Origin: Perkinsus olseni | Lineage: Eukaryota | Direction of reading: 5' to 3' | NCBI GenBank assembly: GCA_013115125.1 | Contig: JABANN010000102.1 | Span: forward strand, 1-64,000 | DNA length: 64,000 bases | Shown: piece after piece, positions 14,001 through 64,000 of the stretch | Position numbering within the stretch: position 1 is the first letter of the stretch | Layout of the letters: the number at the start of each line of letters is the position of its first letter | The notes under the pieces: model-generated | Told to the model about the DNA's origin: nothing | What the model saw: only the letters and a program-made list of their open reading frames with translations | The model's database searches: none | Position numbers and translations under genes: made by a program

Positions 14001-14799
14001 AGTGCTCAGGTCGGTATGATATCTTCCCAAAATTTGCATCCTCGAGGTTCGAGGAGGTATCTTTATTCCTCCGCCCCCTGAAGGGCTACCAACAGCTCAA
14101 CCATATTTTCGGAAGTCCGCGAAAAAGGTAAAAACGGACAGACGCCGGTCCGCCGGGGCACAGTCGCTGCAACTTGGGGTCAGCTAGCTGAATCTCCTTG
14201 TAAGTACGCGTAGTGTTACGTCAATGAAATACGGTGACAAAAAGAATGCGCACGCTACACAATGTACGCACACGGTCTACGCGCAGCACATGAGATACTT
14301 ACGTGCAGATGCCGAACGCACGGATAGGATTCACTGTTTCAACTACAGTAGAACAATAATAGCAGGGTACGCATAGTGGTCACTGTGACTCCCACAAGAG
14401 CTCCGGTATATCTATTGGTGTGAAAGATGAACTCTTCCCTCCCAGCCCGGGAAATGCGTGCATGCGATGAGACGTCTAAGCACAGCTGCTAAGCGTAATC
14501 AATCCCCGCACACATTCATCTCTCTGCGAGAAGTTAGTAGCCGCTTCGGCCACAGCTATAACACAAAGTGATGCCAATCCCACACTCCCGTGTCGGCCGC
14601 AGTGTGGTGGCTTTCTTGCTAATTGCGACTACCCGTATACCACATTTTCCGTAATTCCCAGCACACATGATACCCAAGTCCAGAACCAATGCCCTGGTGG
14701 AATTGAACTGATGAACTCAACTCAACTTCTTCTTACCAATCGACAGTGTCGTAGTGCAAAAGCATGACCTCGCGCCACGAAATTGTGCGTGGTTAAACT

Positions 14800-15890
14800 G
14801 TAGTCTGATCTCAACCTGAACGACCTTCGTGACATACCAGTTCCAGCCTCCCCGCCGTCAACGACTCACAAGAAGCCGAGCAGGGACCCCCAACATCCCC
14901 TATTCGACCTTTCCAGAGGACCTCTTCTACGTCCAGGCCCTGGGCTGCGGCGTAGTACCTAGTTATGGAGGATATTCCGGTAGACAGGGGAGAGCTGACC
15001 CGCTGATCCTGAGATAGAGCCACTCGGCAGCAGCGAGACAGAAGACAGGGAAGGAGATGAGAAGGCTCAGAGCGGCTAGCACTGTGGTTACTCTGGCCTG
15101 ACGGAGGACCTGAGAGGGTCTTGGTGGCGAAGCGAGTACATCTTAACGTGAAAATTAAAAGTCATGGCGAATATTACTGCAAAATCAGAACTCAAATATA
15201 GTACTGACTACTCGCTACTTATACCTTGCCTCACTCGACGAGGCCATCGGCGAAAGAAATTCACACCTACTCATCACCATCCTGCGCAGGGATGACACGT
15301 TAGAATCGTACTATCAATACCCTATCGCTATATCCTTTTGGTAATGACTTTATTATATACCGACAGAACCACGCCATGCAATAGTGACCACATAGGTGGA
15401 ACACGAGGCCAACGGGAGCTTGTAGGAGGGATCTTAAGAAAGAGCTATTGCCCAGACTACTCTGCACGCATAAACATAGACGGAGCGTAACAAATGCCTT
15501 TGTCCATCTCACAAGCTCCCTTTGACGACCGCTCCTGCCAAATCCTGTAGAACACACTCCTCAGTTCGAAAATACGGGAAGCAAGACCCTCCCGAAGACT
15601 TTCGCATCCCCTTTCAATGGCACAACAGATCCGCCACGATACCATCCGAGGGTTCCTTCGCGAAATATCCCCGTCCTCAACCCACCTCAATGTAGCCCTT
15701 ATCAACCCTCCCAGTCATCTCTAAAACTGCGGAGACGGCAACCGCTGCTAGAAGCACATTAGCGACAATAGACGACCCACACCTGCGGCTGATCATCGTC
15801 ACTGCGCCACGAAATTCAACCCTACCTCAGGATACGCTTCTTCTGACTTGGCGATAGCTCGGCGGTCAAGCCTGCCGTATCGCCGCCCGG
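14800..15890 (-). CDS. Intron-containing host gene fragment, unknown product
   Basis: Short GT-AG introns (e.g. gtagggttg...ccgcag at ~15783-15825) join open frames ...SQKKRILR|CGSSIVANVLLAAVAV...GYIE, GCESLREGLASRIFELRS and YYAAAQGLDVEEVLWKG. Confidence 0.45.
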
Positions 15891-15899
15891 ATTGGTCCC

Positions 15900-18300
15900 T
15901 AAGAACAGCGGAGCGAAGCTGCTGAACCGAATGGGACGAACAGAACCCACTGAGGTTGTGGATTTTTACGGAGGCCTCCACGACGTTTAATATGAGTAAA
16001 CCCATGAAGGGAGTTAAGGTCAGTAGCCTGCACTTGACGTCATGCATTCCCCAAGGACTTCTGGTCACTACCAAAGGGCCGCTGAACCCCTCGAAGGGGA
16101 GAGGCCATCGAGCTGAGCTGTTAGAGTGATGGTTTGCAGGAGCAGAAGAATCTGTTAAGAGTACGTGTAACACTGGTATAGCCGGGAACTGGTACCTTCT
16201 GAATGACGCCCTTCGAGCGGCACCAAACTCCTATTCGTTGCTCATCGCTCTGCGGTCGACCCTCCAACAGGAGAGCATCTTTGACCAGCAGCAGACCGAA
16301 TAGGATGAACCTTGAAGTAGGAGGTATCTTGCAAGCGGGCCCAGTGATGGCGCTAGCGTAGCGAAGGACGATATTATTATCGATTTTGGGTTGGCCACCT
16401 CCCCGGAGCGTTACAGAGGTATATTGGTGTGGCGCCAAGTGCTAGGAGTTGCGAAAGTTGTGGTAACCAAAAGGATACTCCAAATTAAAATTAATACTGA
16501 GGCCAGGAGGAACTGAGACAGGTTGGGGGTCGAGAGGGTCGAAGGCGGCTCAGGCTCACCCCAGCGTTGTGCAGGGCCATCCTGCCGATATTCAGGTAGC
16601 CTAGAGAGCACCACCAGTAACTGAGGGAAGACGGTCAAGTCGGGAGGCGTGGAGACCCGCGCCCGGTTCAATAGGGTCATTCTGAAACTCAGAATCGATT
16701 GTGGAGTCAATTTTTACACGTAAAGAGCAGCTCCAGAGTCGATTGTGAGTTGCGGAATTGGTTTGTCGAACGACCCCTCATGAGGGAGGTCGCCGGATCT
16801 AGTCCTGGCGACTCCATGATTGGGAATATATGGGAGTCGGGAATCTTAGGTTGAAGACGGTTAATTACACAAGGTTAAGATACTATCACCGACTCACATC
16901 CCAACCGCCGTCGCCGCGGCCGCAAAGACTGTCAGCTCGATCGGTAAAATCAAGAACAGGGAAGGATGGAGACCTGAGGGGATCTGCTATGAGAGGCTCA
17001 TACATGGGCTGATGATCTCTAACCGTGTATGCCGCCCTTCAACCTAAGATACCCAAAGATACTAGTCAAGAGAAGTTGGACCTGATTCCAGCGGAAGTAG
17101 AGCCAGTTCAGGGAGGGGATCTTTACGTAAAGGACTGCAGTGGTTATCCAAACCCAAAGACGGTGGTTGCCCGTTCGCCAGAGCTGCCCTAGTTGGCTTC
17201 TCCGGTCCTGAAGGGGGTATTTATCTGTCTATGACGGTGTTGCTGGTGAGGATCGGTTCTTACAGTGGGGTCATCGGGGAAAGCTGGTATATAGATTCGA
17301 CGGTAGGGGAGGGTGACAGAGGCCGACCCTGGATACTTGGATGAATGTAGGATAGTGGTAGAATGGGAAGGGAAAGAAGAAGGGGCCTGGTAGTGTAAGA
17401 GATGGATAGTAACGACCGAGGTGAATTTTGCCGTTGAGGAACACTTAGATGAGGTAAGAAAGCAAGATTTTGGGATGTAGTCGTTATTGAAAGACACACA
17501 TCTCGCCAGTATAGTGGGAGTTGAGTTAGTGAAGGTGCGGTTGGGAGGAGCCTTCCGGGTCTTCTGGCATTGGAAGAACAACCGTGGGTTCTCAGGATCT
17601 GCTGTGCGGGCCTGCAGCTGCTGATCGAGAAGTTCGAAAGACTACCACGCCCTAGTCCATACGATAGCGTTACCTGGACTGTCTTTGAATAATAGCCAAC
17701 AGCAACCGTAGGCCGGTCGATGAGTTAAGGACGGTGGAGCTATGCTTGTCTACAACTGCGATGTGCGAGTCTGAGGTATAATGTAATAACTGGTTCATTC
17801 AACATCTCTTCAATGTCGAGTAGCTGCCAACGATCCATGGGCAGCCTTCTGGCACCCCTGGCGGGCTGTTCAAAGTCTGTGGATGCTCAGTAGTAGCAGG
17901 CCTGTAGGCCTCTCTGGGAGTGTTGGGTGATGCTTATTCGGTTATTGTTGTGGTTGGTAGTTTATCAATAATGTCAGTATCGTCTAATAATGAGGAGCTC
18001 CGAGCTGCTCTGAATCGTCGTTTAGCGAAGAGGGCCCATAGGGTAGTAGGAGTTGGGGAGGGAGTGGTACAGGACTAATGTGATGATGACAGGAGTGTAT
18101 GAGCGTATCTTAGGTCGATGCACGACTATCACAACCAGTCGCCATTCGTGGTTGCGCTTTTAGTTCTAGTAAACTAATGGGCTCCTGCTAGCTCTCCTCG
18201 AGAGGCCAAACGCTTGCGACCTTCCACAGCACTCCCTCAGGCACCTACTCGCCCTACCACAGCACCCCCTTCTGCATTCGATAAAAGTAGTACTCACAGG
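15900..18300 (-). mobile_element. Degenerate non-LTR (LINE-like) retrotransposon, endonuclease to partial RT
   Basis: Minus strand: AHGSLAAT near 17830 (APE N-terminal-like), PSTWRHTNI near 16430 (FPxxWK-like pre-RT motif), and a frameshifted PQGSV(L)SP near 15940. No introns. Confidence 0.5.
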
Positions 18301-19529: not shown

Positions 19530-22500
19530 GACAGTGACTGCTGCTGCTGCTGGGGGAGAGGGTGAGCAGTCCAGGGCTTCTATAGCGGGTGTGCATATGG
19601 AAGGGTATCTTTCCAAGCTTAGCTCAGGGAAAGTCAAACGATGGCAGAAGAGGTTAGTAGAGGTCGAACCTTGCGATTTACGGAAAGGAAGATACGCAGG
19701 TATTTTATTCTGGACGGAGGGTATCTGGGGTACTTGAGCGCACCGGGTCCGGCGGATCTGGCTAAGAAAACGTTCGACCTTTCGAAGGCGAGGTAGGCTA
19801 AAATTAATGCTACTTTCACAGCGTCAACCGCTTTCCTACATCAGCAATGTTGAGAAGGCCGACTCAGAAGATCCGAACAGCTCTGATTTCAATCTTATTT
19901 ATAGTAAGGAGCGGTCGTGGACGGCCGTCGTGGACAGCTGCTCTCTGCCAGATAATAACGTGTACTACATGCGTGCCCCCTCGGTTCCTGAAATGAGGAA
20001 ATGGATGAACTCCATGCAGATTGTCATCGCCGCCACGTAAGGAGTGCTGGTCGTCGTGGCTGCTGTGATTAGCCAGTTCTCAGGTATAGCGGCACACGGG
20101 CGTCCGGAGGGGTGGAGGCTTCGGAGGCAGACAAGATGTCGGACTCGGCACCAAGTACGTGTACTGTCCGGCCGGAGCTTGAGAGTGTCCGACAGACGGG
20201 CGGTTTTTCCGCGTCCATTGGTCTCGGGCGGGCTCTAGTTGGTGCTCTTTGGCAGGCCTCGGTGGTTCTTCTAACGTGAGTCGGCTGAACTCAGTGACTT
20301 CGCCTAAGCCTGCTGCTGCTAATAATATGCCATCAACGATCTGGGAGGTAGTAGCGGCAGTAGGCCTGGCGGTGAGCTGTGACGATCGTGCTGTCCTGCT
20401 GCTGTAGCTCGATACGGATAGGCTGGATAGGATGTTCGAGGAGAGCTGGTTCGAAGTGGTGGATGAACTGAAGGACGAAAAGTGTGATAAGGAGGCGATG
20501 GGTACTACATCAAAGGCGGGAGAGGTCCGTCATCGTCAAGACTAGTCGCTGTAGTCGTCGTCGTCGTAGTAGTTAAAACAACGAAGTCGTTATGTCCGCG
20601 AGTCTAGGAGGCCTCAGTTGGTATAATTTTTACCACTCTTGTGCTTGTTGATCAGCCCTGTCGACTAGTAAGATGATAGACGGTGTGACGAGGTGCAGTA
20701 GTGATCTCTATGCTACCTTGGCTAAGATGAACTCCAGCAATTATGTACTATGAGGGTTGGACGAGAGGGCGGCTGCAGTGGATTCTGGCGCTCAGTGGGG
20801 TTACTGAGGAAGCGAAAGGCCCCGCGGCAGGCAGAGCATTCTCTGTGATCGATCTTCGGGCTCCTATGCACAATAATAAATCAGAAATAATGACACCAAA
20901 AGTTTGTGCAAACCGGACAGTCACCCGTGCTCTTTCCGTCTTAGACGGTACTGACCTATGATGACACGCACGGGGCGATAGAAGCCCGGTTGAAGGGCTC
21001 CTCTGAGGAGAGAGATCAATGCCTGTGTATTGTCCAAGAGTATATGCAGAGGCTGGCTGTTTGGATTAACAAGTAGGATGAGGATCGGTGGTGGAGGAAG
21101 GAGGCCGATCGGTGCTGCAGATGGTTGGATGTGAGAGCACAGTGGAAGATGCACGAGAGCCATGGCGGAGGCATCTCGAATATCTTCAGCAGCGGCAAGA
21201 ACAAGGGCCCAGTCAAGGTAGTAGGTTTACAGTCTATCGAGGATTGGACAGCTTTCAACTGGCCTTCTATTGGTGCTTTTGAGGAAGTCCGTGGAGCCTG
21301 TCGTGTCCGCTCGTCAGCCCATGGCAGCCCCTGTTCTGTCGTCGGACTTCCCTGCCCTCCTGGAGGCAGTTGCAAGACTGCGGTCGGAGATCAACAAGCT
21401 CTTTGGACTAGACAAGGCTGACGAAAAGGTGGGGATAATTTTCGTGGCGCGCGACGGAATTCTGGGAAACGGGGCTCTAATACACGGGATGCCTCTTCTC
21501 TTTGAAGGTAGCGTCGGCTAACGGCAAGCGAGACAGCGTATCTTTGCGCACGCGGAAGAAAGCTGAGTGCACTGATCAGAACGGGTGAGCATATAAGCAT
21601 CTAAGCTTGCTTTGTGCGCTGTTGAAAGATACTCTTTCTGGTCAGACCTTACCATGCATGGCGTCAACAGCTGGAATCAGTCCTCCAGAGATTGGGCTCT
21701 GAATTAGAGGTTGGAAGATCTTTGCCTCTGTCGACTTGAGTGCTACCGAATCTTCAGACAGCTGTCATCGAGGAGCTTGACAAACAGTTGCAGACGACTA
21801 ACGTGTGGGAGCCCAAGTGCCAGAACTCCCTGGGGGAAGGGGTTCACGGGCCAAAATTAGTAGGAACTTGCCGATGAGTATCACAGAGCTGGACTGTTGG
21901 TTCGTGATTGTAGTTGTTGGATCGAGGACAGTATTGTCTCACTACGTCGTGGACGCCACACTTGTTGAAAACAATTAGAGGTAGGCTGTGGCTCGTGGCC
22001 ATTTTATTAAGCCAGGGACACGCGACCTCTGTGAGGCCGCGTGCTGCGGAAACTCGTAGTTTTTTGGTAGATGGTTGGGCTCTCGTGGGTGTTTCCAACT
22101 CCCATAAGTCTATGCGAGACTGCGTCAGACAGACTTCGCGAGACTGGAAGGCGAATCGCCGTTTCTGCAACCGTCTGCCGGATGTTTCCGACGAGAGGAT
22201 GCTCATTGGACTTTGCACCACTGTACCGTGATCGTTGGTTCTCAAGTTCGTATCCAGCCCCCCAAGAGAGAGAAGGCCGACGTACATTGTGCGAAAGTTC
22301 GGCGGCGTAGCTCTTACAGTAGAGCGATCGATTTCATGGCCTTCCTAACCCGCCGAGATATGCGTAGTATCTTGCACCTAACAAAACATCGTCCACCGCG
22401 GTGCCAGGGCCTAGCATGAACCTGGGCTGTATTGGTAGTTTCATTTCGCTCGATTCCAAGAGCCAAGATCGGTAGCCCGGCTGTCTCGGCGACAACGCCG

Positions 22501-30040: not shown

Positions 30041-30399
30041 GAGACAGAGAGCGAGGTGGGAAGCGGGTGGTTGACGGCGCGGAGATAGTCCGTTTGACAG
30101 CTATGGAGGGTATAGCGGACGCATTGTCATCGACTCACGCCATTTGGAAGTGTGTGTGAGTTCGTAGTCCGACGCCGGTTCCGGCATAGTTGGGCTCTTA
30201 CCGGTGTGCTCAGTCGCTAACTGACAGTCAGGGGCTCAGTGCGACGTAGTTAAAGCAGGCTCGAAAAAGGCCATTGGGAATGCCAGAAAACAATGTCTCC
30301 TCGTACCCGCATTTTCTGAGAACATCTCATATTCATTGAGCTGGATTGTTACCTTTGTTTATGGAGTTTTTGCTAGTCATCGGGGACATAGGGTGTCTA

Positions 30400-43804: not shown

Positions 43805-43846
43805 ACGCATGCGCAATGAACGCATGCGCAATGAACGCATGCGCAA
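43805..43846. repeat. 15-bp tandem repeat, ~2.8 copies (acgcatgcgcaatga)
   Basis: Directly visible; encodes RMRNE in one frame. Confidence 0.9.
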
Positions 43847-45153: not shown

Positions 45154-45980
45154 TTTTTTACAGTTTTTTACTTTATTTTTTGCGGTCTTTCCCGCCGAAT
45201 GTAGATGAGTTTTCGGCTCAGATGGTTGTTTTGTTGATACACTGATGTTGGGGACCTTATTGTGTATTATTGGCGTGATGACAGCGGCCGGCGCCCTTGG
45301 TGCTAAGAGACGTGACGAATGTGCCACCTACAGCACGATGTACAAGGAAAGCTCCCAAGGGTGAATCAGTTAACGACCGCATCACTCGCCGAATAAGCAT
45401 TCAAGTAAATTCTCAGACTGTGGCTGTGCTCTGAATAGCGCGGCGCCGCCCTATTCGGATGTGCCAAGGTTCAACACTGACTTCTGCTCACCATTGATCA
45501 CTCCCCACAGGAGAATACAACACACAGTTCAGCAGGGCCGCCATTCGAACCCTGTTGTGGGGCTAAGGACTCCGTGGCGAGCGCGGTGGCTAAATGCGCA
45601 AGTAGAATCTCGCTCGCCTCAAAATCGATCGAGTTGATCTGTTTTTCTGTTTTCCACGTCCGCCGAATATGCCACCTGCTGCTTCGCTTGATTTTTGCGA
45701 GTGTTCGACTTGCTTGACGAGGTCCTCCAATCGCATTGGGAGCACCTTCTGACCTTCCTTGGTCGATCATGCTGCAGGACTCCGCTGAGGGGCATTACCC
45801 CTCCAGAATCCTCGTTGTTGAGCCTTTCGAGTGTATCGGCTGAAATGCGACGCAGCACACAGGGAAAGGTGTGCTAAGTTTCTGCATGTTCCTGATGGTG
45901 GAAGTGTCTCGAGCATAGCGGAGCGAAGCGCCTCACTCGATATCATTAGTTTGTCAACCAACACTTGCCTTTGTTCAATC

Positions 45981-48534: not shown

Positions 48535-49457
48535 CCTGCCTTTTATTTATGAATTTACGATGATGTTCATGCTGCGATTTTTTTTCACTGTTTTTCTGTT
48601 TTCTCTCTTCTATGCTCCCATTCACTTTCGATGGGTGTGGAGGGCCATGTTAATTTATGACTGTTGTTCATGTGATCTTACTCCGTTGTTGTGCATCCTC
48701 AACGCTTGCCGATGGACCGTGGTCCTTCCATCTACAGTGATAGTGAACGGAGAACTTCACACGCGCGATGAAAGCCTCGTCATAAAGTCGCAGAGCGGCA
48801 GGAACCCTCCCTCGAAGCCGATTGAGTATCTCTACTTAGGGACCCACCAAACGAGGCACGTGCTGATTCAAGGAATTGCCGGATTTCTTTATCACTTTCA
48901 TATGCTTTGAGTGATGCGACGACAGCGTACAGTATAGGACCATGGCGTTCCCGGAATTCTATTCAGAGATGGCTGTGCTAGCAGGAGTGGAGAAAAGGTG
49001 TACACTATCTCGTCATAGTAGGTGTGGTTATAGAACATGAGTAGTTTGAACTCATAGTGAATAAGATAGACCCTTATCTCATAGTATTCTCAACTACTCT
49101 ACTTTGTTTTTTCTGTATTTCATAGAGCCAATAAAAAGTAGAGTAGCTGAGATAATGGAAGTTGATAACGAGAGGCTAGTATGATGAATCCAGTGACCAC
49201 ACGGTTCAGTTGTGTCACGCAGACAGTACAGGTGCCCTGGTATGACCGAAGAGCGGATCGTGCCAGGAGAGACTAAGATGGTTCGGTCTTCTGCTTCGCC
49301 TCGTTGTGGCAGTATCATTGGGGCCTAGTTAACAACGCAGCACGTGAGATTGTCCTCAACTTGCCAGCACATCAGCTTCGGGTCTTACTGTGGCGTCGGG
49401 CTTCAAAATCACATCCACGCCTGTTCGTAGACAGGCTTTTTTCTGACACCTCTAGCT

Positions 49458-52400
49458 ATGTCTAACGAGTCCTGGCAACATCGATGGGCGGGATGCATGA
49501 CTGAGCTCCTCGAACAGATCCATGTGGAGCATCTGCCAGCGAACACTCGTGAAAATGGAGAGGTGAGTGTATCTTCCGCACGGCGAAGAATTAATTCCAT
49601 GAACGGCAGGCTGCTACTCTAGTCACAGTCAGCGATCACTAGTGTGGAATGAGGAATCTTGTTGCCCATTTGTGACACGCTTCGACATATGATATTTCCT
49701 GCAGGCTCTCGATATAGGGTTCCAGCCCTTCGCCCTGGTGTACATCAAGTACCTTCATATTTGCAGTAACCTCGAGGAGATCTACGACCAAATGATACAT
49801 CCGCAAAAACGGAAATTTATTCGCCGGGTGAGAAGTGCATAGAAGGTCGAGCGAGGCATTCGCGGAAGACAAGATACTCTCTGGTTTCATATTTCCCTCA
49901 TGCATGCTGTTGTCATACCACTCCATTCGCAACTCCTCAGGTCATGGAATCGATAATCCTCAGAGTACTCGAGCTCAAAGAGCAATTGATTTTCTTCAAC
50001 CCCCGCCATAAGAATCGCTTCATCGCACTGGACGAAGTAAGATTCCCTAGGAAGCATATCCCGGTCCCCATCTCCCGCCAGATCCTGGCAGACCTCAAGT
50101 TGAGCCCCGCCGTCCTGGACTGGCGATTTCCGCGATGCTTCACCGCTGACACGCACCTAGCAGACTGGCTGGAGATCCGCAACAAGCGCATACAGCACTG
50201 GCAAAAGACGTTCAACCTAAGCCGAACGCTAGACGACCTCGACGACCATACAGACCCCTTCCATGTCGGTCTGCTGCTGACGGATGGTGGTGATGGTGGT
50301 GACTTTAGATACCATTTACATTGGACCAGGCGATAAGGTTGATACAGCGGAACGAGCGAGGAAGGGCAGGCATTCAGAAGGCGATGATGATTGCTAACTG
50401 GCGGAGGGAAGCTGAGAGGTGGGCTACTGTGCTGCTCGAGTAGAAGCCTGTATGAAATACAAGGGGTAGCAGATTTCTGAGGTGCAGCATTGCGAGGACT
50501 GCTCGGAATTATGGGAAATTGTCGGTGGATTTTTGGTATAGCATCTTGTCTTTCACTCAACTACGTTCCCCCATGGCTTTTCAGTGGAAAGTTAGATCCT
50601 GCGGCGTCTCTCTTTCCGTGTGAGCGTAAAATAACACTTCAACTCGCTTATCACCAATAAGTAATTAGTGGATAATTATTAACCCTCACTATCATCATTC
50701 TCATGGCTTCATTATTATTTCTATCTTCCTATATATGGTGTCATACTTTGAATCATCCTTCGTCCTCTCGCAGGAGAGAAAGACGACTCGCCGAGGGAGT
50801 AAACTTCGCAGACCTTGACGATGACGTACCACTCCTCGCCATAATCACCCTGCTACCGCCATTTCCTCAGTCTGAAGAGTTGCTAGCAGCCCAGCGGGCG
50901 GCGGTATCGAAGATAGCAGCGTCATGGACGAGGAAATCGGCCATCAGGGTGAGCTGGTCGAAGCCCCTCGACCCTCGCCACCCCTCTGTACTCTCAGTGC
51001 GTTCAACGCATGAAACAAGAAGAGTACATCTTCCTCGGTATGCTGCCGCCAGTCGAGAAGCCCCCTGTGGACCAGGTAACAGTTGCCGCCTCTTTGGCTC
51101 GTGAACCCCTCCCTTAGATTGCGCTTGCCGAGGAGATCAGAGTACAGCGGCGACAGTCCCAGATGGAGGCGAGCAGTGATTACGATAAGGCTTTGGACGA
51201 TGAGCTTGCGTGGCCGCGGAAAATCAAGGTGAGGGGGTATCATTCGAAGATGCGCTTCTTTGATATCAATAATCGGGGGTGGTTGGTGAATTTTCCATTT
51301 CCGCCAGGGTCCCGATCTCCATAAAGAGATGCTCGACGAGCGACGCGAATGGATTCTTGAAGTTCGGAAACAAACAGGAGCCTTCCCCGCAAACCTCGAA
51401 GCCTTCTACACGCGATTCGTCGACCAACCAGAAGAGGTCAGGCTGGCTCGTGTGATCATGATAAAATCTGCCTGTCACAGACGGTTGAAGGTGAGGGCGA
51501 TGGAGGGAAGCAGAGCAAGGATGGCAAGAAAGCGTCCGATAAAAAGGTGGGCTCATTCACCCTTTCGTTGTAGTAGATGTAGTTGTTGAACATCAGTAGA
51601 CTGAGCTCGTAGTGAACGAGAGGGAGCAGATAGAAAGTAGGGTAGTTGAGAGAATGAGTTCCTAATGCGAAGCTAGCATGAGCACACCCGATTGCGCTAC
51701 GTAGACTGTGCAGTGGAGAGTATCCAAAAAAAACAGCTGGCCAGTTCCTGCCGAGATAAGGTCGATTCAGAAAGTTGCGTTGAACTCACACTGGCGAATC
51801 TTGAATAGTTGTTCGATGAGGAACTACCGACAGATCGGTGGCAATGAAAACCTCCAGCTGAGGGAACGAAAGAGGCACTCCTTTGCAGGGCGGCGATAAG
51901 AAGGCGTCCAAGACTGTTGCGGAACCCGAACCAGAGAATACGCACGACGTCGGCACCTCGGCGGTGTGTCTTAGGCCATGATCAACCTAAGATACCTTTC
52001 CTAGTCAGGTGGTCCAAAGTCTGGTCGAACAGCTAAAGGAATACGCTGCCACCTGGGAAACCATGGATGAGTCAAAAAATGTCGACCAACGTCATGACGT
52101 GCAGGTGGCATCGGACTTTTCTGGGGAAATCTTGCAAGCTTGCTCTTTGTCAGCTTGTCCGGGACAAAGTGTTCCCTGTCGTCGAACGGGAAATACAGAA
52201 CTCAGTAGACGAGTTGATGCGGGAGGAGCTGGCGAACTTGAAAGTGGGGCTACGGATCGTCACGAGACCTCATCGGGCCTCTTCAGAATATGTACGAAAA
52301 AGCGAAAAAGAAGAAGGAAAAGAAGGGCAAAAAAGGCAAAGGTTCGACCGGTTGCGCTGAAAGCTCTCGGAGCATCTGTGATGCAGGAAAAAAGGAGAAA

Positions 52401-54709
52401 AAAGGGAAAGTGAAGAAGTGGTGCGCAGCGGTTGGTATGGTAACGCACAGAGAAGATTGCCTACCGGAACTAGTCCAAGATGTAAGGCATCGTCCACATT
52501 AAACTCTGCGATAATCATAAGCCTTCTCGCGACAGGGCGGGGTTCACTACGCCAGATGTCTCGATCGGAAAAACTTTTAAACCCCGGAAATATGTTTGTT
52601 GCTTCGAAAAAAATCGAGGAAAAAATTGTTGGGAAGTTTCGGCCCGAAAAAAGTCGTCATGAGTGTTGGTTGTCACGCTCCTTCACACTCTTCCTCGCCG
52701 CTTCTCTCCTGACCAGACGACAGTAAATCGTCCCCCTCCTCATACCAGTCGACCTCCATTGCCAATCAAAACCCTATTCCCCTGTTAGGGTCTGGTGAAG
52801 TGCGTCGCCCCAGCCCGTCTGAAGGACTACATCGGCGAGTTCGGTTACCTCGGGGCCGCCCGACGAGTCTGTCTGCCAGCCTGTCCACCACCCAGCGCTC
52901 AGATGGTGGGAAACAGTGGGCAGCCATCACTGGTCATCATCATCTGGCAGGTGAAATCGTTGATAGTCGAGCATGTGGCCCTCCCTCTGGCTTCAACCAC
53001 CATCCGACAGCAGTGCAACTTAGCGGCGAGGTCAATACTATTGTAAGGATGCTTTCTACCGCACGCGGAAGAATCCTGCGGTCGAGATACTGATCCATCC
53101 CCCTTACCAGAATTTCGCGGCGCGCGGTCAATTCCCCTACTGCCAGGTACGGCCCGAAAGGCTGTGGGAAGTCTCTGCTTGCTCGAATTATTGCCACTGA
53201 GGCGGGTGCCACCTTCATCGACATATCACCGAAAAAGATCGAGGGGAAATACACCCAAGTCGGAGTGGCATCGCCCTCAGCGATGATTAAGTCTTCATCT
53301 GTCAGCCTAAGGTTGGCCCGGCGCTGCTGATCTACAAAGCCTTCCTCGTGGCCCAGGACAACGCTCCGGCTGTGATCTACTGTGACGAGATCCATCAAGT
53401 TGGTGGAAGCTGCTGGTGACTGGAGGCGGAGGGGTGTCTTGCAGGTGTTCCAAGCGGTGAAGAAAGGGAAGAAAAAAGGAAAGGGAGCGGCCTCGACGGC
53501 GGAGGGAGGCGGAGCTGATGAGGCCTCTCAGAGTGGGGAATCTTAGCTTGACTCTGGTTCTACTCGGATGAGGTCAGATGAACCCCCGAGCCGTATCAAG
53601 AAAGATTTCATCGCAGCTATTAAGCAGATCAAGACCGGCCCCGACAGCACCGACCAAGATCGGATTGTGTTCATCGGGTGTAAGGCGAAAATACACGCCA
53701 GGAGTTGCCGAAATTATGGTACCAACAATACTTGATAAATCGCTAATATTGTTTGGATTCGTTACAGAATATTAGATTTCTAATTATCGATCCGCGCTGG
53801 GCCGAATCGCTGTAGGTGAGCTACCGAAAATTCCTGTCTCTAAAACGTCCCGGAAGTCCACACGAGAAGCGCAACATTACCAACTATCACTAGTAATATA
53901 TCCGTAAAATTAACATAAAATTAGACGAAATAATTACTTCAATGATCATGGATGAACTTCTGATATTTCTAATACCTGATAACCATTAAATCACATGTCT
54001 ATCATCTGGTATCGAACCAACTTTACCGTTGATCGATCATTGCCTGCGACTGGAGGTACCTCAAATCCCTTTGGAGAAAGTATTGACACGAAAGAACTGC
54101 TGGCGGCATTTGATGAGAAGGTCTGGATATCCACGCCCGACTTCGGTACAAGAATTATACTGTGGAGGAGTTTTATGGAAGAGAAGGGAGTGGGCAACGG
54201 AGGGCTGACGAAGGGAGCCTGCAGTGCTGCTCCTGGTGACAGGTACCGTCGCAAGTGACGACCAGTGGCAGTCTGAACCTCCCCAGTTTGGCACATCTAA
54301 GTGAGGGGTACACCACAAGGTCCATCAAGCAGGCTGTGGATCGGGTAGGGAGGTCAGGCAGTGGAAAAACCGTGGATTAAATCTCCTTAGGTTTTGTCGA
54401 ATCGGCGCTTGTCGAGGTTAAAGCAGCGGCCACTGGTGAGTACTGATGGCGGTGTCGAGGGACATGGCCCTTCAGACACTTCATGAGTTTATTGAACCGC
54501 TTTCCCGGTGTCATTACTCCTGGAAAGAAGAATACAAAAAGTTTCAAGAATTTGATTATGAAGCTTCCGGCGACAAGGCGCGGAACCTGCAGATGCAGGA
54601 AGAGGTCGACTACAGTACTTCACAAAATAAAAGATACGATTCTCATTTTTAGACCAAGAAACTGGAGGCCTCTGCTGAAGCCGAAAAGGGTGATAAAAAG
54701 AAGAAATAA
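49458..54709 (+). CDS. IQCA1: IQ and AAA domain-containing protein (dynein regulatory complex protein 11), multi-exon
   Basis: NLEEIYDQMIHPQKRK, lysine-rich KKGKKG stretches, Walker A YGPKGCGKS, Walker B VIYCDE, FDEKVWISTPDFGTRIILW, and the end AEKGDKKKK*. Confidence 0.9.
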
Positions 54710-55179
54710 TGAAGTCATGATCAGTGGCAATGCCTGTGATGACGTTGTTGGACTCGAATAGTATATTGGGTTGATGAGTGGTCATGGCAGACAGTAGGAT
54801 ACGCGGTTGACGGATAAACAGCATCTCTGGGATGTTTCCGAGTTTGAGTATAAATGCCCTCATCCGATGTGTGCATGAAACCCCCATCCATGAGCCGGGT
54901 AAAGGCTTTTAACACACTCACGAAAAGTTGATAAGATTCACATCAACATCAGTACGAAGATGAAAGAATGGAAAACTGGTGGTTTTGAGGTAACGTCGCT
55001 CGAAGAAAATGATACCGGGCAAAGGAAGCTTACAAAAGCGACATTACACGGGTACGTAGGGGTCTCCGCATGAGAGCATCATCTCCAGGAGAGTAGCGCG
55101 ACTCCCCTTTCCAGAGCCCAATGACGATGTAAGAACGAGGGACGCTGCTCGAACTGATAACACGACACTTAGTGAACTG

Positions 55180-56619
55180 TTAAGAACCTTCTTTATACCG
55201 GATAATCAAATCTACAAGTTGCGATACATCGGTGAAACAGTCGGGGTCGAGTGCAGAGAGATGGTCAATGTCAAGCAGCAAAGATTCCGAGCCTGTGTCT
55301 TGATCTGGGGGGCCGAGCTAACAACAACAGAGTATGAAACGAAGGGTGAAAGAATACACTTACCGGCTTCAATGCTGCCGTTTTACGGGTGCGCATGAAC
55401 TCAACGACCAAGGCCAATTCTCGAGGTGACAAGGAACTGTGAAGTCTCCACCCAAGGCGTATCTTGGCCGCGTGTCTGAGAAGACAGAGGTTTCAAGGGC
55501 GATACTATCGAACCAGTTTATTCAGTATACTGAATGGTCATGATCAGCAAAGGCGACCTTACAATCCATCGACGGCTGCCTTGTCCATCGGAGGGAGTAC
55601 AGCAGGCGCCTCCGCCGCGAAGGGCTCGTCTTTGACATCAACTCGAGTGGACGGCGCCCACCTCGAGTTCTCAGCCGCCGTAAGACTCGACCGTCTGCTG
55701 CTTCTCGACTGCTTTCCTTCCGATAAGTGGCTCCTGATGATGATAAACACCGTGACTGGACATGAGGGGGATTTGGGGGTTCGTAGGCGTGTAAAATGAG
55801 AAGGGGAGGAATGTCGATATGAAAGGATGCTCGTCATGGGTCGTAACAGACGGCAGGAGACCGCCGAAGAGGGAGATCGTTGGTGCGAAAGCAACTTCTA
55901 CAATACTCTTACCAAGGGCTCGCGTGGAAAGGGCCGAGGACTGCAATAGGAGGTCTAGAATGATTTCTATATTTTCACATATTTATATTCGCATTTTTTT
56001 GTTACTTCAAAAAATTTACGTACAACTTTTTATTGATATTATGACTTCAAGCGGTGGCGATGAGGTCCGGGATACCTAACGCAGTATGAAGATTCTCTTA
56101 CGCTTTCCGTTTCTTTCTGGTGTGTCCCGCGACCGAAGATGCACACAAACTCTGACAGTAAGAACGCATCTTTGTAGCCATCTTGTATCTGGCATATGAA
56201 AGGTTAACCTGTAACAACCCAGCTTCGACCTAAGATACCACTGCCAACTCACATATAGGATCCCGGACGATTGAAGAGATGACAGTTATCCCAGATGAGA
56301 TTGAGATCGTCCTCGAACTCGCCAAAGTCGGCATACGCGTCATCGCCATCTTCCTCGACTTTCGCGAGTACCGTACCTTCCCCAACTCGTGGCCAACGCA
56401 TACCAAAATCAACTCACCCAGATCCATCGGCCTCTTAACAATAAGGGGGTAATCATGCAGCCCCGGCAAGTTCTTCCAATCGACGGGTTGTAGGAACTCC
56501 CCGGCGCAGTTGTGCTCTCGAGCCTTTTTCAGAATTCGTTTCGCTTCATCAGCGCTGAAGGGCGTGTCCGAATGTCGATGGTGATGGTGACTTCGAGGGG
56601 AGGATGACGACGATGGCAT
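55180..56619 (-). CDS. Single bromodomain plus ET-like domain protein (BET/GTE-like), multi-exon
   Basis: FLQPVDW...DYPLIVKRPMDLGTV...DLNLIWDNCHLFN (conserved Asn). C-terminal LSPRELALVVEFMR...LLLDIDHL is ET-like. Confidence 0.85.
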
Positions 56620-56726
56620 CTTTCTGACACCTCTAGATCAACTCTTTCCCTCCATTATCGACTCAACATCAAGTAGTATCCACGACGACAAAATATCTTA
56701 ACAATCATGCGCGCACAGCGAAGATT

Positions 56727-59700
56727 TCATCTTCCGGACGCTGCAGAGGGGGGCGTGGACGGGTTTGTGAGGACCCTTATCACATGAGTAGGAGGGACTT
56801 GCAGTTCTTGATTGACCTCACTGCCAAGATACTTATCCAAGGCTCCTTTCAACTGCAAACAACGACAGCATATAAAAGATACCACCAACGACTGAGTCGT
56901 CACCTCATGATTTTCCCGTTCGATAATGATGCACTTTTGTACGGCTGCCGCTCGTCTGTTTAAAAGCTTATACTGCCTGTTAAGGCAACTCTCAACCGCG
57001 GCGTGAAGGCGCACGCTCATCGACGGCAAAGCATGCCCGATCCGCTCCCAAAACCTGTCAGGTAGAGAGAATCCAGCTGTCTCTCTGAAAGTTGTGAGGG
57101 TTCACTTTCGCTCTTCTTTTCGTCTCCGGGCTGCCTTTTCCGCGTCCGTTTTCTCTCCACCTTTGCGATTCTTTTTCTTCCTGAATCCGTAATACGCCAT
57201 GATCGACCAAAGATACCACTGAAGTATCCCTACTTATCAGGAGCGACATCGGCCAGTCTAAGATTCTCTTTTTCCACTATAAATTCTGTTATCAAACTGA
57301 GCACGTCGTCCGCTTCCACCAGCCACGTCTCGTCATCTTCATCTTGGCCTCGGAAAAATTGCGAGACCAGCAGATCCACATCTCGCTGATCTTCGCACCC
57401 GGTGGCACGAAGTATCGCGTCAATCTGATGACACAAAGGGGCTGTTGCGTCTGAGAAATCCCCAGAAGCTCCCGAAGTCCAATTGGGAGCAACTCACGGT
57501 CATCCTCATCACGCCCACTCCGACGACATTGACAGCGGAGCGTGAGTAGATAATCACAGCCGGAACTCATCATCAACGAAATTCAAATCTCGCTACTCCT
57601 GCAGGGGTTGAACCCCCTTCTGGCAAATACTATCACTACGTGTACCATCCAAGGGAGCTGAGAGCCGCTACTAGCGACCCTGGTATTACCTCAACCACTG
57701 CCCTGTGTTCGGGTGGGAGGTCGCGGCATTGATCCTTCACGGAGATGTCCAACAGGAAGCCTGCCTCGTTCCTTATCCAGTCCATAACCGCTTTCACTTT
57801 GCTACCCTACAACAACATCAACAACCGCTCAACGACCAGAGACATGGCGCCCGGAGGAGATCTTCATACTCAAACGACAGAAAAGCGCATCTTTACAAAT
57901 TTCATCCTGGCATTAGTTAAGTTGTTTGGATACCACCAGCTTCAACCTACCGAGAATCTCCCTCCTGCTGATCCGGAAGTATGTCCACTCTCGCTGCTGA
58001 CGATCGCCGTGGATGACTTCCCCGTAACCGTGCCGGCCTCGCTCATCACTTCTATTTCCTGCTGGATCTGGTCCAGGCTCGGCGCCGTCCACGCTAACCC
58101 GAGCAGCTGATGAAAAAACAACAAAATCTCCAGGATTTTTTCCGAAAACACCAACTTTCCTTCCGAAAATCCGCGTCTCACTACCGCCTCTAGCGCTCGC
58201 CCCACTGATCGATTTCCCTCAATACCTGTTCGTGTATGATTCTATCACCATCCAATACCTTCTCCACGAGACCTCGAACCTCTGTCTCGTTATTGGCCCA
58301 GACATCGGAAATTTTTTTCTGATCTTGTTCTTCAAACCTCCTTGTTTTCTCCAGCACGTGTCGATACTGTTGCATCAGTCGGGCCAATTCTTCCGTTAAA
58401 TTGCCGTTGTCCTTGCGTGAGGTGGTCTCCATCTTGACGAACCTAGCAGACGAATCGAAGCTTCCTCGTACCACACCTCCACCGAATCACTGAACGGTTG
58501 ATTTTCAAAAAGACAATACTCTCCAAAGACGTATACAAACCGCGAGTGGAAATGTGTTTTTTCCAGATCTAGTCAGATTACTTGCCCAAATTTTTGAGAT
58601 TTTCCCAATTTTTCCCTTAATTTTACGTTCCTGCGATTTTTTCCCATCATCAGCATGATTTCAATCTCTAACATATTCACGTCCGGTGACCCGATAGCAT
58701 CCCCGAGCGAGGGTATCTTAGGTTGATGATGGGAAGATTTACTTGTCTGAGATTCTCTGTTTAGCATCTCGCAACTTGCTCAGCTTGACCTTATAACTCG
58801 CTTCTATCGCGCTATGTTCTTTATTTCGCTCCGCTAAAACCTGAACAAAAGCGTTGAGGAAATGCAAGAGACAGCAAGATAGCAAGATGGTCTACCTGTA
58901 GATTGTAATCTAGTTTCTCCTTATTCAACTGGTAAGTGGCCATAGTCCGTTCCAAGTGCTGCTCCAACTCGTGTATGGACCCCTCTAGCGACATCTTTAC
59001 TTTGTTAAATTCATCCAAGTCCTGAGGGAGTGCCACAAAGAGGAGATTGAACCGTTCCGAGAATAGCAGGAAATCTTATCCATTCATCACAAAAAAGAAA
59101 TAAAAACTAACGGAGAGTTTCCTACGTGGATAGTGAAACGGTTAGTAGACTTCAGCGGTAGCAGAAAATTATTTTTTTGAGAAAAAACGCAAAACAGCTG
59201 AAAAACGGGAAGTTCTCCACTGGGAAATGCAAAATCATTCGATCATCCCACCTGAATCATGTACGATGTAATAAGGATACGAAAGAGGCTCGAGGTTGAA
59301 CTAAATCTTTACGCAAATCACTTCTCCTGTGAAAACGTCGTGCACAGTTGAAAAAAGTTAAGAGAACACTTGCGGAAAATACACGATGGCCATGCAAAAA
59401 TACAAAATCCTTCCACTGGGGTACCCCACGGACTACGAGAAATGTATGAAAAATACCGTAGCTGACCCGAAGTAAATATGCAGGAATTCTCCGATTCCTG
59501 CCAGCTCCGTACGACACACTGAACGCCGTCTAATAGCTGCTTTAGGGTAAATTTTCAGGAGTTGAAATTTTGCCAAAAAATTTTCTCAAATTCGGGAAAA
59601 AATTATTTATTTCAGCACCAAAAAATCCAATATTCTCACCCGATGGCACAAGTCTTCGTTTTTCTGGTGAAATTGCTTCTCCCGCTCCTGCCGCTGCTCA

Positions 59701-61366
59701 AGGAACTCACTCTCTTCCCTCTGACAACATCACCCAACCTACTTCGTATCTTTCAAGGTTCAACCTAAGATACTACCTGCCTCCGCTGCTCGAAAAGAGC
59801 ATCTAGCTCCTTCTTTTGCTCAGCTAACAGGTCAGCTCGGTCCTTTTGAAGATACTCCTCAAAAAATTTCAACTGCCCTCTGTGAACCTCCCGCTGCCGT
59901 CGGACGTTTTCTGTTATCAACTTCGTCATTTTACGAACCTACTAGCGTCACTCGCCACGAAATTGATCATCGCATCGGGAAATTGTTCGATATCTAATCA
60001 TCTTCACGTACTGCGCAAAGGATATCATAGTGAGGCATTTCGGCCCGAGCAGGGCATTGCATTTTATGCTACTTTCCCAGCATCAACCTCTTTTCAACTC
60101 TCCCTCGCTTTATCTATTACATCCTCTTCCGCCCTTTTCATAGCTTTCACAAACGTGAAATTTTTTTCCTCCAATTCCGCCAAAAATTCTCGAATTCGTC
60201 GGTCCTAAAAACAGAACGCGTTGAGCATAATTTCGTGGCGCGTGAGAAACTCACTTTAGAATCGATAATAGCTTGACATGATATCGTCTGCGTCTCCAAC
60301 TCCTTTGCCAACTCCTAAGACAAAGGTCCCAGGTTCGATCCCCGGCGCCGACATCTAATATTATATCACCTGGGCTATATTTATTCGTGCCAAATCGGAC
60401 CACTTCATTTCAACTGCGGCATTTTTCCTATTGGACGTGATCGCTTCGATCTGTAGGGTTTCGTACCTGGAGACAGAAAAAGCGTACCAAATTAGTATCT
60501 ATAAGACCGTTCTTCCCCCAATATTTATACTATCCGCCTTCATAATCAAACTCTGGCGCTTCTAGTGCGCGGGAAAAAATCAAAGGAAAACGAGAAAATA
60601 AAAGAAAGAAACCGCAAAAAAATCCAAATTTAGAAGAAAATTCAACCAACAGCAACGCTGGTCGCTCCGTCCGCTGCAGTTTGACGGTTCACCCCTTGGT
60701 GAAACAATCATCTACGCGTTCACTGATGGTCACGGGTTCGATTCCCCCCAAGGGCACTTATTACCTATCCAAGCGGGCATTCTCATCCTGTATCCTCCTA
60801 CCATTCTCAGCATCATCAGCATCCACTTTTATGTTAGTAATTTCGTCGATCAAATCCGCATCCGATCGGGCAGCAATTGCGATGGCCTTATCCATTACAA
60901 GTTGAAAGTAATATAACGCAAGGCGGATAGTAGATCGGGCGCGGTATTTTGCACGCGCCGCGAAATTACGCGCGCGCCCACGGTGAGCTGGCGTCGGGAG
61001 ATTTCGAATACCCAAAATCCAAGGGGAAGGTGCCAAAGCCAAGGAGGCACTTTCGGGGATCTAGTTGCGCTCGGCAATACTTTGGGTTTCTGGTGGGCCT
61101 GGGTAACAGTTCCGGGTTCGGGTTGCCCTGTCGGGTTTCGGGAGGGGTTTCTGGTTTCCCGTTCCTGCCTTCACCCACAAATTGTGGGCCACAATTCCGG
61201 AACTTTTTCCGGAACTTTTTCTGTTGCCTTTGCCTCCCTGTCGAACGTGCTTCCTTGGATTTCGTACCTGTCCCGGAGATTTGGTACTTCACCTTTCGAT
61301 GATTATCAAACTTGATGTTTTTTCTCGGCTTGGACACATCGTAGCTTCCGACCGGTCCTCAGGCAT
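56727..61366 (-). CDS. DRC1: Dynein regulatory complex protein 1 (CCDC164), multi-exon; start codon uncertain
   Basis: EITNIKVDADDAENGRR, CQAIIDSKDRRI, MATYQLNKEKLDYNLQVL, VLDGDRIIHEQLLGLAW, and C-terminal LDKYLGSEVNQELQVPPT. Confidence 0.9.
60315..60353 (+). ncRNA. tRNA 3'-half relic filling most of a 55-nt DRC1 intron (antisense to the gene)
   Basis: ctaagacaaaggtcccaggttcgatccccggcgccgaca: variable loop AGGTC, T-arm GGTTCGATCC, acceptor-strand-like tail. Confidence 0.55.
60692..60756 (+). ncRNA. Degenerate tRNA-like element in a DRC1 intron (antisense to the gene)
   Basis: 7-bp closing stem cccttgg/ccaaggg, T-loop GGTTCGATTCC preceded by GGTC. D and anticodon arms are shortened or irregular. 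Confidence 0.5.
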
Positions 61367-62250
61367 TCCCAATTGGGTATCTCGAGTATATCTCGCTTGC
61401 AATTTATCGGTTGCGCTGCTTTAGGGACGAAGTTAGTTTTTATGGTTGACGAAGCCGTGGCTGGTACAATCTGCCGTCACAAAAGGGTATCATTCAGTCT
61501 CCGAAAAGTTTTCGATGTTCTTTCAGGTTGATTGTTAATTATGATAATTTCAAAATGGACGGCGGCTGTTGGACGGGTCTCCTTCGGGACTGTCCGTGTA
61601 TTGTCGCGCCGGGCTGTGGCGTCCGGGTTCAGTTCTATGGCTGCTGTTAGCGATGGTAGTAGTGAGATGTGGGCGATTTGCGGTATTAGTTAATTAGGGA
61701 ATACTGAGCATTTATGGCAGTGAGTATCTTACGTGAGGAACACCGTCTTCAACTTTCGAATAGCTATATCAGATGTTGCATAGTAACTCTTTTCTGCAAA
61801 TAGAAGAGAAGACAGTATAAGAGTATAAGAAGAAGCCACGAGCAGTTAACGTCCAATTATGAAGCTTCCGAATTGGAGCCGGAAAAATACCCGGGTGGAG
61901 AATTCTTGCTGAATTTCCAACGGTACATCTCTTTTTCGGCTGTAAACGGCGGTGTTACGGTAGTTGCGGTAAGCGGGGGGCGGTCCACAGTAGCTTGGGT
62001 AGGATTACATCTACGGCATCGGCCCAATTACAGCAGCTGGATGACCGCTGTAATTTCATGAGACCACAATTTCCGTTAATCGTGTCGATTGCGTCCGTCG
62101 CACGTCACTTCTGAGGAATCGCGAAGATGGGAATATCTTGGCCGCCAGGTGATAAGTAGTTATTCTTCTTCTTCTTCTTCTTGGAATGTGCTCTTTGTTG
62201 CCGATACCAAAAACTGCACAACTCGTGAGAGGAAATATCTTACCGTTGGA

Positions 62251-64000
62251 TTATGGATAAGACTTTGTGCGGATGTTTGAAAAAGTTTTACGCAAGTCAG
62301 TTCGGCAGACCTGATCGGGGAATCTTATTTTCTGTGCATCGCTCGGTTCAACCTTAGATACGTTGGTTGGTTCCAGTGCCTCGTCTGATGTTCCCATACA
62401 GCGGCCTTCTGAAGATTCTATCATGGAAGCTCCCGAGGGCGGGGGGGTTGAAAATATCAAATTCGGAGAATCGATCGATACTGAGTTGAAGACAGCTTCC
62501 CTAGCCCCGATGGTAGTGATGGGGATCTCCATGCTTATCGACCTAGCGACTGGTTTGCGAGTGATCGTATTGATCTTGGAGGGCGCGTCACCGAAATTCG
62601 GGGTTTGGAAATTTTTGACGGATGAGTCAGGCAAAATTGTGGCTAGCTTTAGATGAAGAAGCGAAGAAATGATTTCATCGGATACAGTGGTCCAAATAAT
62701 CTTGGAGTATTTGCGAAAGGAGCGGTATCTCCGTAACAATCACGAATCAGAAGCTGTTTCTTGGATATATTGTGTGTAATAGCAATCCACTTAGTACTGT
62801 AGTTCCGATGCTTATCTTTGTTGCCTATGAAAGATCATGGTGAGGTGCTGTTATAGGATTCCGTGATGAATAGAGTAGGACTTTCCGAGGCAAAGGTGGC
62901 GTGGTAGGCTATTGATCAGAGAATTTTTTTTGTGAGTATGAATCTTCAATAACGATCGGGCTCGCAGAAATTTCTTTTTTTCGACAAAATACCGAAGATC
63001 CGCTCCGCTTCGTTTGATGGATCGATAGAAATTCTCCAAAAACGAGTCCACTACTGGTTTGACGCTGATTGAGATCGGGCCTCAGGTGCGATCGATGTGG
63101 TTCAACGTACCCGGCGGAATGGCAGTTAGGAATTCGTTATACAGAGGGTCGTCGAGGGAGGCAGCAGCGCTGGCTGAGGGGGATGCAACGAGGGCGATGG
63201 TAGTAAAAAGGGAAGAATAGATCCAGGGATTTTACCTCAGTTGAAGACGGAAGCTTCTCACCAATTTCACGCGCGTCAGCGTACTTCTAGTTGAGCATAG
63301 TCGCTTCAGCTTCCGGGGGGAAATTTTGTAAAATTTTCAGAATTTTTTCCATTGTTGTTTCAACTCATTTTTCGGGTTTTCGTATTGCACTAGTTTGTCA
63401 GGTGGGGCCGTTCGGGTTGGCAATGGAAGCTGTGCGAAAAACGCTAGGATACTCGGCACCAATAGATATGTCGCCTAAGTAGGTTATTCCGTGTATCACC
63501 AGCATGAAAGATTCTCTACAAGATACTCTTGTAACCTGGTTATTGAACCCTACCATAAGGGTCAAACTGCAGCATATAATTGGACTAACGTGCTCATCCC
63601 GAGATCAGTTGCCTACCGGTGGCCGTTGGATCTTTATGTCGATCCGGTAGTAAGGGAAAAGGAAGAAGAGATTTTCTGGTATATTCATAGTACTGGAGTT
63701 TCGCTCGTCATGTTCTCAAAGTGAAAAACGCGACGTGATTTGAAGTCACTTCGCGAATTACATGCGGAAATGCGAAAAAAACAGTTTTTCGGGAAAAATG
63801 AGGAAAAAAATCGAGTTTTCCAGGAAAACACTCATATCGCACGACCCGGTGATAGGAATACTTGGTAAACGGTGAAGAACTTTTCCGTACCGTCCGGGGC
63901 GTGTGATTGGAGCTACCCTCGTGGAGGGGGGCAGCGGGGTGCCGCGTCTCGGGGCTCACCGGTAACAACCCAGTATCAGTGGGATAATTGGCGTCGGTCA
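62251..64000 (-). CDS. 3' portion of a multi-exon hypothetical gene running off the window edge
   Basis: Last open frame 62251..62739. Alternating AT-rich intron-like and exon-like segments upstream. No domain recognised. Confidence 0.35.

Follow-up and report, generated by a model that had tools for sequence, protein, structure and literature searches.

The first 64,000 nucleotides (nt) of contig JABANN010000102.1 of Perkinsus olseni (assembly GCA_013115125.1), hereafter the window, contain a 14-base word, AATTTCGYGGCGCG (motif A), which recurs in predicted introns and in flanks of unrelated genes, and the question that this locus raises is what keeps so short a word constant while the DNA around it shares nothing. 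Perkinsus, a commercially important parasite of molluscs (clams), forms a branch basal to the dinoflagellates and adds a spliced leader to its transcripts by trans-splicing. An earlier note on this stretch had described an orientation-independent motif, mostly in short introns, and had read it either as a DNA-level protein-binding site of loose E2F likeness or as the core of a tiny mobile element. The answer proposed here, tentatively and with somewhat less than even confidence, is that AATTTCGYGGCGCG may be kept by selection as the site that a sequence-specific nuclear protein binds.

The recurrence of AATTTCGYGGCGCG in the window is real. With up to two mismatches, nine matches were found, compared with a mean of 0.59 and a maximum of 3 in 100 dinucleotide-preserving shuffles, of which none (0 of 100) reached nine, and a frequency matching the background model was therefore not seen. 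The independent loci are eight, each with at most one mismatch, the ninth match being an overlap with the copy at 21438, and the density of the word is about 1 per 8 kb. The mismatch spectrum counts 4, 4, 1, 5 and 42 matches at 0, 1, 2, 3 and 4 mismatches, and 30 second-order Markov simulations gave expectations of 0.03, 0.37, 6.8 and 53.6 at 1, 2, 3 and 4 mismatches, respectively. Since the matches with three and four mismatches are at chance level, the excess lies only in near-perfect copies, and the spectrum has no tail of degenerate sites. The copies and their variants are as follows.

14771-14784, minus strand: motif A, no mismatch; no open reading frame (ORF) of at least 50 residues spans the copy.
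15798-15816 (core 15803-15816), minus strand: 19-mer form of motif A, one mismatch; 21 nt identical to the 29565 copy.
21438-21451, plus strand: motif A, one mismatch; sense in a plus-strand gene.
21448-21461, minus strand: inverted partial copy, two mismatches; overlaps the 21438 copy as a partial palindrome.
29565-29583 (core 29565-29578), plus strand: 19-mer form of motif A, one mismatch; sense.
43549-43567, plus strand: intergenic variant containing an indel, with Pex16 on one side and the following plus-strand gene on the other.
53111-53124, plus strand: motif A, no mismatch; sense, ending 22 nt before the 3' splice site at 53146.
59951-59964, minus strand: motif A, one mismatch; sense, ending 12 nt before a 3' splice site.
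60229-60242, plus strand: motif A, no mismatch; antisense in the 50-nt GT..AG intron 60205-60254 of a DRC1-like gene (bases 13-26).
60954-60967, minus strand: motif A, no mismatch; same direction as the DRC1-like gene.
62583-62598, minus strand: weak and doubtful variant; antisense within the 573-nt intron 62513-63085, which RNA confirms.
63262-63275, plus strand: weak and doubtful variant; sense within the 202-nt intron 63200-63401, which RNA confirms.

Every coordinate at which the earlier note had placed the motif holds it, and the two weaker variants that it had added at 62583 and about 63263 belong to a class whose count is not above chance; in the former, positions 62583-62584 differ in the DNA runs X8 and X9 (a diverged strain). 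The 43549 variant has three ungapped mismatches and was counted as the ninth member because GGCGCGCGGTC is common to it and to the 53111 copy.

The word has sharp edges. Across the eight aligned copies, each of the 14 core columns carries 1.1 to 2.1 bits, and the flanking columns carry at most 1.25 bits, mostly less than 0.7, the one mild extension being that 6 of the 8 copies have a G at the second base past the core. Furthermore, the 25-nt flanks on either side are at chance level in all 28 of 28 pairwise comparisons (2 to 12 identities, local scores of at most 7). The longest repeat around any copy in a self-BLAST of the window is 21 identical bases (15797-15817 versus 29584-29564), so that the identity previously noticed between the 15798 and 29565 copies stands but reaches two bases beyond the 19-mer first described, and the 59951 copy differs from the 19-mer form, as had been noted for its longer version at 59946, by the deletion of a single base. 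What the copies have in common is thus only about 14 to 21 bases. Given 14 near-fixed bases between random flanks, selection on the word itself would be the best explanation, and a drifting relic would not be expected to have kept the sharp 14-base edge.

At the 59951 and 60229 copies, contigs of other runs stop precisely on reaching the AATT edge, which hints, and no more than hints, that the word occurs elsewhere in the genome. A scan of a metagenome collection with the 19-mer returned one match (L001) with no second copy, as chance would give, in what looks by eye like a GC-rich bacterial contig; a 30-letter filler sequence from the read-contig mapping has no match within the window. The word is apparently previously undescribed: the portions of the Perkinsus literature available contain no description of it, the P. 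olseni genome paper not being among the matches listed.

The copies lie, as far as their contexts show, in non-coding DNA. Five of the nine (21438, 29565, 53111, 59951 and 60229) have homology, annotation or an open frame in support of an intron, two (60954, in a 5' flank, and 43549, between genes) are outside introns, and the other two, at 14771 and 15803, were assigned to neither group. The claim that most copies are intronic holds for about these five, and that of short introns holds for the 50 nt at 60229 and not for the 182 nt at 59951 or the 2.5 kb at 29565, the host introns spanning 50 nt to 2.5 kb.

The richest context is the DRC1-like gene on the minus strand, in which successive ORFs match positions 20-53 and 54-76 of the NYD-SP28 profile and the C-terminal NYD-SP28_assoc domain lies at 56730-57101; a PDB search with its exon 59768-59938 gave no DRC1 match. 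Three copies of motif A, including a complementary pair, are found within 1 kb at the 5' end of this gene. The 59951 copy would correspond to bases 157-170 of a putative 182-nt intron, 59939-60120, whose removal keeps the frame open, with flanking exons that rest on ORFs only, and the removal of the intron 60205-60254, which hosts the 60229 copy, likewise keeps the frame open. Both orientations of the word are therefore present inside this gene, as the earlier note had stated (60229 on the plus strand, 59951 on the minus strand). The 60954 copy lies between divergent genes and precedes the first in-frame ATG of the DRC1-like gene (60895) by 58 nt. In the same region, the interval 60843-61509, between the DRC1-like gene and the divergent plus-strand gene, has about 10 times the surrounding word depth in two DNA runs (989 and 889 versus about 50 to 130 around it) and many loose ends at 61164-61216, and it includes a tandem TTCCGGAACTTTTT; it probably holds a dispersed repeat.

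In the gene hosting the 53111 copy, the Pfam AAA match begins at residue 19 of ORF 53094-53327 and the PDB alignments of AAA proteins begin at residues 17 to 18, a start (residues 17-19) that coincides with base 53147. Judged by these matches, the gene is an AAA+ ATPase; the more specific label IQCA1 given to it before could not be verified, the best PDB matches of the exon being VCP-like ATPases, and a PDB search with ORF 52713-53090 found no match. The 29565 copy lies inside the annotated 2.5-kb last intron (approximately 29422-31934) of a P. olseni hypothetical gene, the exons of whose protein, P0121, map to 26582-29422 and 31933-32070; P0121 has no PDB relatives, and an Atlas search returned no named cluster.

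The 21438 copy probably begins 9 nt after a 5' splice site at 21429, and the relatives P0125 and P0126 cease to match at 21416-21419, just before it; the open frame continues through the copy, which makes an exonic status possible. A Pfam search of 150 ORFs within 11.7-27.8 kb detected only a sub-threshold PH domain (19738-20037). A 143-aa ORF on the minus strand (15802-16230) ends in the 15803 copy and found no relative among longer proteins, and a 43-nt GT..AG intron around this copy is possible, as read from the sequence. Local GC skew is weakly negative at the 14771 copy; because skew agrees clearly with only 6 of 9 control genes of known direction, it was left out for orienting the 14771 and 15803 copies.

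The 43549 variant lies about 540 nt upstream of a likely spliced-leader acceptor at 44103, within a region (43501-44132) covered by an RNA contig. This contig carries CTTGGCTCA just before 44103, matching the 3' part of the published Perkinsus spliced leader as given in the consulted part of that paper (PMC3101222), and 44103 probably serves as trans-splice acceptor for a strongly expressed gene that has a 177-nt intron (44694-44870).

With these contexts in view, it is possible to hypothesize that AATTTCGYGGCGCG, often extended to about 19 to 21 nt, would be a discrete functional word, held constant by selection while the surrounding DNA drifts, and that it would most likely act as double-stranded DNA. 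A sequence-specific nuclear protein would dock on it, and the length of the footprint would suit a dimer or a multi-domain binder; sites in introns and gene flanks would then tune transcription or local chromatin of the host genes. AATTTCGYGGCGCG would apparently be one of several such words in the genome. A DNA site predicts the perfect antisense copy at 60229 and the copy at 60954 outside any intron, whereas a sense-only RNA signal does not. Moreover, 3 of the 7 gaps between neighbouring copies are at most 1100 nt (P = 0.039 for random placement). We favour a DNA site because it covers the antisense copy, the 5'-flank copy, the clustering and the parallel with the B-box-like word described below. 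The earlier proposal of a DNA-level protein-binding site is in this way supported in part: it fits most of the observations, namely the sharp edge, the lack of an RNA fold, the antisense and 5'-flank copies and the clustering.

Several observations weigh against a DNA docking site. Its 14 almost invariant positions exceed those of most transcription-factor sites, and all the word counts come from one 64-kb window of P. olseni. Among the seven copies with an assignable host strand, six are sense and only 60229 is antisense, so that orientation independence had been overstated; the two-sided chance of six in seven is about 0.125, which is not significant, and such a sense bias nonetheless fits a signal at the RNA level better than an orientation-free DNA site. 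In several sense copies, 12 to 28 nt separate the end of the word from an actual or potential 3' splice site, and a branch-point-like GTGAC or GGTCA comes after the word, hinting at a role in splicing. Finally, nine introns in 43501-63500 are RNA-confirmed by contigs of runs X7 and X10, and none of them holds a sharp copy; over the AAA and DRC1-like genes these RNA contigs give little or unspliced cover.

These points lead to an alternative that we regard as possible but unlikely, according to which an RNA-binding factor, or else base pairing, would recognize the word in nascent RNA, both within introns and within the outron or 5' leader, and would thereby govern how particular genes are spliced or whether their introns are retained; genes needed only in the flagellated zoospore would be an example. 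Besides the sense bias, this would agree with the location of at least five copies in sequence that would be spliced out and with the 22 and 12 nt that separate the sense copies at 53111 and 59951 from the 3' splice sites. The antisense copy in the DRC1-like pre-mRNA could pair with either sense copy, the 60229 copy being complementary to those at 59951 and 60954 at 13 of 14 positions each; however, the other host genes hold single sense copies with no pairing partner. X7 RNA contigs are unspliced over 57950-58838 of the DRC1-like gene, at a depth of 20 to 44, which would fit retained introns, although they may be DNA carry-over, the RNA status of X7 being itself a guess. Against an RNA signal, the position within the intron varies (9 nt after the 5' site at 21438 versus 12 to 22 nt before 3' sites), the 43549 variant is some 540 nt away from the nearest acceptor, and the copies have no common fold (z scores of -1.0 to +1.2 across the eight). 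Other RNA-level classes were rejected as well: the P. marinus spliced-leader exon and intron-start sequences, as given in Table 1 of the part of the source consulted (PMC3101222), are not complementary to the word; the host introns have 5' ends that do not resemble the U12-type consensus; and the four weak Rfam matches in the window are all away from the motif.

Somewhat less probable still is that the word would be the conserved core of a family of introns that sometimes spread to further genes, by a process like that of introners or by intron transposition, and would be kept because splicing of the copied intron requires it. The 15803 and 29565 copies share GGTTGA just upstream in addition to the 21 bases, and the 15803 and 21438 copies both stand 9 nt after a GTRGGG start resembling a 5' splice site; for these three copies, an origin in an intron family is plausible. 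A pair of related introns in unrelated genes also speaks for such a process. In particular, 43282-43323 (plus strand, Pex16 region) and 58841-58880 (minus strand, DRC1-like gene), both in 55-56-nt GT..AG intron candidates, align over 44 nt with 82% identity and share an identical 20-mer, TCTTGCATTTCCTCAACGCT, which holds a branch-point-like CTCAAC. This pair suggests that introns were copied between genes, and so some Perkinsus introns would be related by descent. Introner elements are, furthermore, known in the related parasite Amoebophrya, where, according to the part of the report consulted, the two ends of an intron are joined by inverted repeats of 8 to 20 nt, with short direct repeats extending over the exon borders and with splice sites that frequently depart from the canonical ones (PMC7789003).

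On the other hand, the flanks outside the word are at chance in every comparison, the host introns differ widely in length with the word at no fixed distance from the splice sites, and the copies also include one in antisense, one within a 5' flank and another between genes. Nor would passive relics be expected to retain the sharp 14-base edge, so that a function would still be required. A whole-element introner was rejected on the same chance-level flanks and on a self-BLAST identity of only 21 nt, and an introner with a fixed relation to splice sites was rejected since the word lies 9 nt after a likely 5' site at 21438 and 22 nt before a 3' site at 53111. As regards miniature inverted-repeat transposable elements, the copies have no body in common, no conserved flank column marks an end, and the ends of any element are undefined. 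In these comparisons, the proposed core of a tiny mobile element finds no anatomy to support it. The comparison with Amoebophrya (Farhat et al. 2021) holds insofar as unrelated genes of a parasite akin to the dinoflagellates probably have a repeated sequence within their introns; unlike those introners, motif A is a single internal word of 14 to 21 nt with no fixed relation to intron ends, its supported or inferred host introns are GT..AG, and some copies are outside introns.

The E2F site has the consensus TTTSSCGC. Motif A resembles it in a T-run followed by a CG-rich core and in being a short, abundant DNA word in an alveolate, and it differs in being 14 rather than 8 nt long and mostly intragenic. 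A cell-cycle promoter element of this type is very improbable. The variant form with a C holds TTTCGCGG, one base from TTTCGCGC, and E2F motifs are abundant upstream of Cryptosporidium genes according to the part of the source consulted (PMC4117751). However, none of the nine copies (0 of 9) has TTTSSCGC on either strand or overlaps any of its seven matches in the window, which removes the likeness previously suggested, and in 6 of the 8 sharp copies a T at the variable position breaks the CGCG core. Only 60954 and 43549 are outside gene bodies, and the identifiable hosts, the axonemal DRC1-like gene and the AAA+ ATPase, are not cell-cycle genes.

Origins in transfer RNA (tRNA) genes or tRNA-derived short interspersed nuclear elements were likewise rejected, as ARAGORN found 0 tRNA genes in the window and its relaxed runs gave only noise. 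Only two copies (those of the 19-mer form) agree with the A-box consensus at 10 of 11 positions, and A-box-like words are not enriched in the window (20 versus 23 expected).

Returning to the DNA docking site, it is further favoured by at least three other over-represented sharp words in the window, which are scattered in both orientations as motif A is. Their positions are listed below.

AGCGGAGCGAAGC, at most one mismatch, both orientations: 2713, 10895, 11605, 15907, 27840, 28688, 45917.
AGCGGAGCGAAGC, two mismatches: 6338, 12221, 58823.
TCAACCTAAGATACC, at most two mismatches, both orientations: 16840, 17039, 18104, 51982, 53537, 56225, 57203, 58712, 59760, 62348.
GGTTCRANNCC (B-box-like), pattern matches, both orientations: 13368, 27299, 42988, 54008, 57604, 60332, 60735.

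AGCGGAGCGAAGC has seven matches with at most one mismatch versus 0.07 expected. Different from motif A, some of its copies lie in annotated or likely coding sequence and in different frames, as in the case of 28688, which encodes PERSEARS in P0121. One copy, in the 46-nt intron 27820-27865, starts from base 21, directly after an internal GGTA, and another directly follows a likely 5' splice site at 12233. TCAACCTAAGATACC has 10 matches with at most two mismatches versus 0.13 expected, scattered in both orientations. Its forward form is found at 3' splice sites, with TCAACCTTAG and then the RNA-confirmed site 62357, and likely also at 58717; its reverse complement is found at or near 5' splice sites, as in CAG/GTAGTATCTTAGGTTGA at 59774 (the slash marking the junction) and at base 13 of the RNA-confirmed intron 56189-56252. 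Two RNA-confirmed introns therefore carry TCAACCTAAGATACC at or near their ends, and the copies at 16840 and 17039 are inverted relative to each other, the pair spanning 214 nt.

The B-box-like pattern GGTTCRANNCC has seven matches versus 1.16 expected, in a window with no ARAGORN tRNA gene. The 48-nt intron 27276-27323 contains its copy at 27299, in antisense, and 13366-13386 and 60324-60344 share a 21-mer resembling a tRNA T arm. At about 60285-60353 on the plus strand, a degenerate tRNA-like sequence can be read by eye, with 6 of 7 acceptor-stem positions paired (GTCTGCG/CGCCGAC), an AGGTC variable loop and a T arm, and with neither a proper D arm nor an anticodon stem; this sequence spans an exon-intron border of the DRC1-like gene in antisense, with the 60229 copy 43 nt away. 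B-box-only sites in other eukaryotes are DNA sites of TFIIIC. For P. marinus, more than 500 tRNA genes and tRNA-targeting Dada transposons are reported in the part of the source consulted (PMC3706591).

Motif A is like extra-TFIIIC, CTCF and ZNF143 sites, which are long, sharp words in non-coding DNA, in both orientations and often near promoters or in introns; unlike extra-TFIIIC sites, it is no B box and makes a poor A box, and it is a candidate site. It is also like the Mer1 enhancer of yeast and the docking and selector elements of Dscam, in that a conserved intronic word occurs in few genes and a sense and antisense pair occurs in one pre-mRNA. Those elements are sense-only and occupy defined places near splice sites, whereas the position of motif A varies and one of its copies is upstream of the coding region.

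A broader possibility, to which we give a low probability, is that motif A belongs to a lineage-specific lexicon of very sharp words of 13 to 21 bases in Perkinsus introns and flanks, formed by motif A, AGCGGAGCGAAGC, TCAACCTAAGATACC and the B-box-like word, which would serve as docking or RNA-pairing sites switching the expression or splicing of stage-specific genes, the flagellar DRC1-like gene with its three copies of motif A being an example.

Other features of the window are recorded here in their own right. Long arrays of a 24-nt (and 21-nt) unit, ATGAATATGGTCGTAACTTCTTCT, occupy 7337-9172 and are broken by a gap of N, and a 31-nt unit is repeated 7.2 times at 35075-35298. Two tandem, intron-less spinster-like transporter genes of the major facilitator superfamily, with 60% DNA identity, lie at 38586-41565; one transporter ORF lacking introns encodes a product with 100% and 97% identity to two P. 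olseni proteins and 81% identity to one of P. marinus. In one plus-strand gene, the RNA-confirmed introns of 702, 573 and 202 nt (61656, 62513 and 63200) all start at GATG/GTAGT, and the identical junctions suggest internally repeated exons.

In the portions of the Perkinsus literature available, no description was found of cis-acting sequences controlling gene expression. A 14-base word as sharp and as frequent as AATTTCGYGGCGCG is a concrete handle for counting, for comparison between species and strains, and for seeking the factor that reads it. If the sharp words did form a lexicon, they would give a first view of the cis-regulatory code of Perkinsozoa. Moreover, the companion words and the related pair of introns suggest that the introns of Perkinsus carry more common sequence than is known, which bears on the way introns have spread in the Perkinsus lineage.

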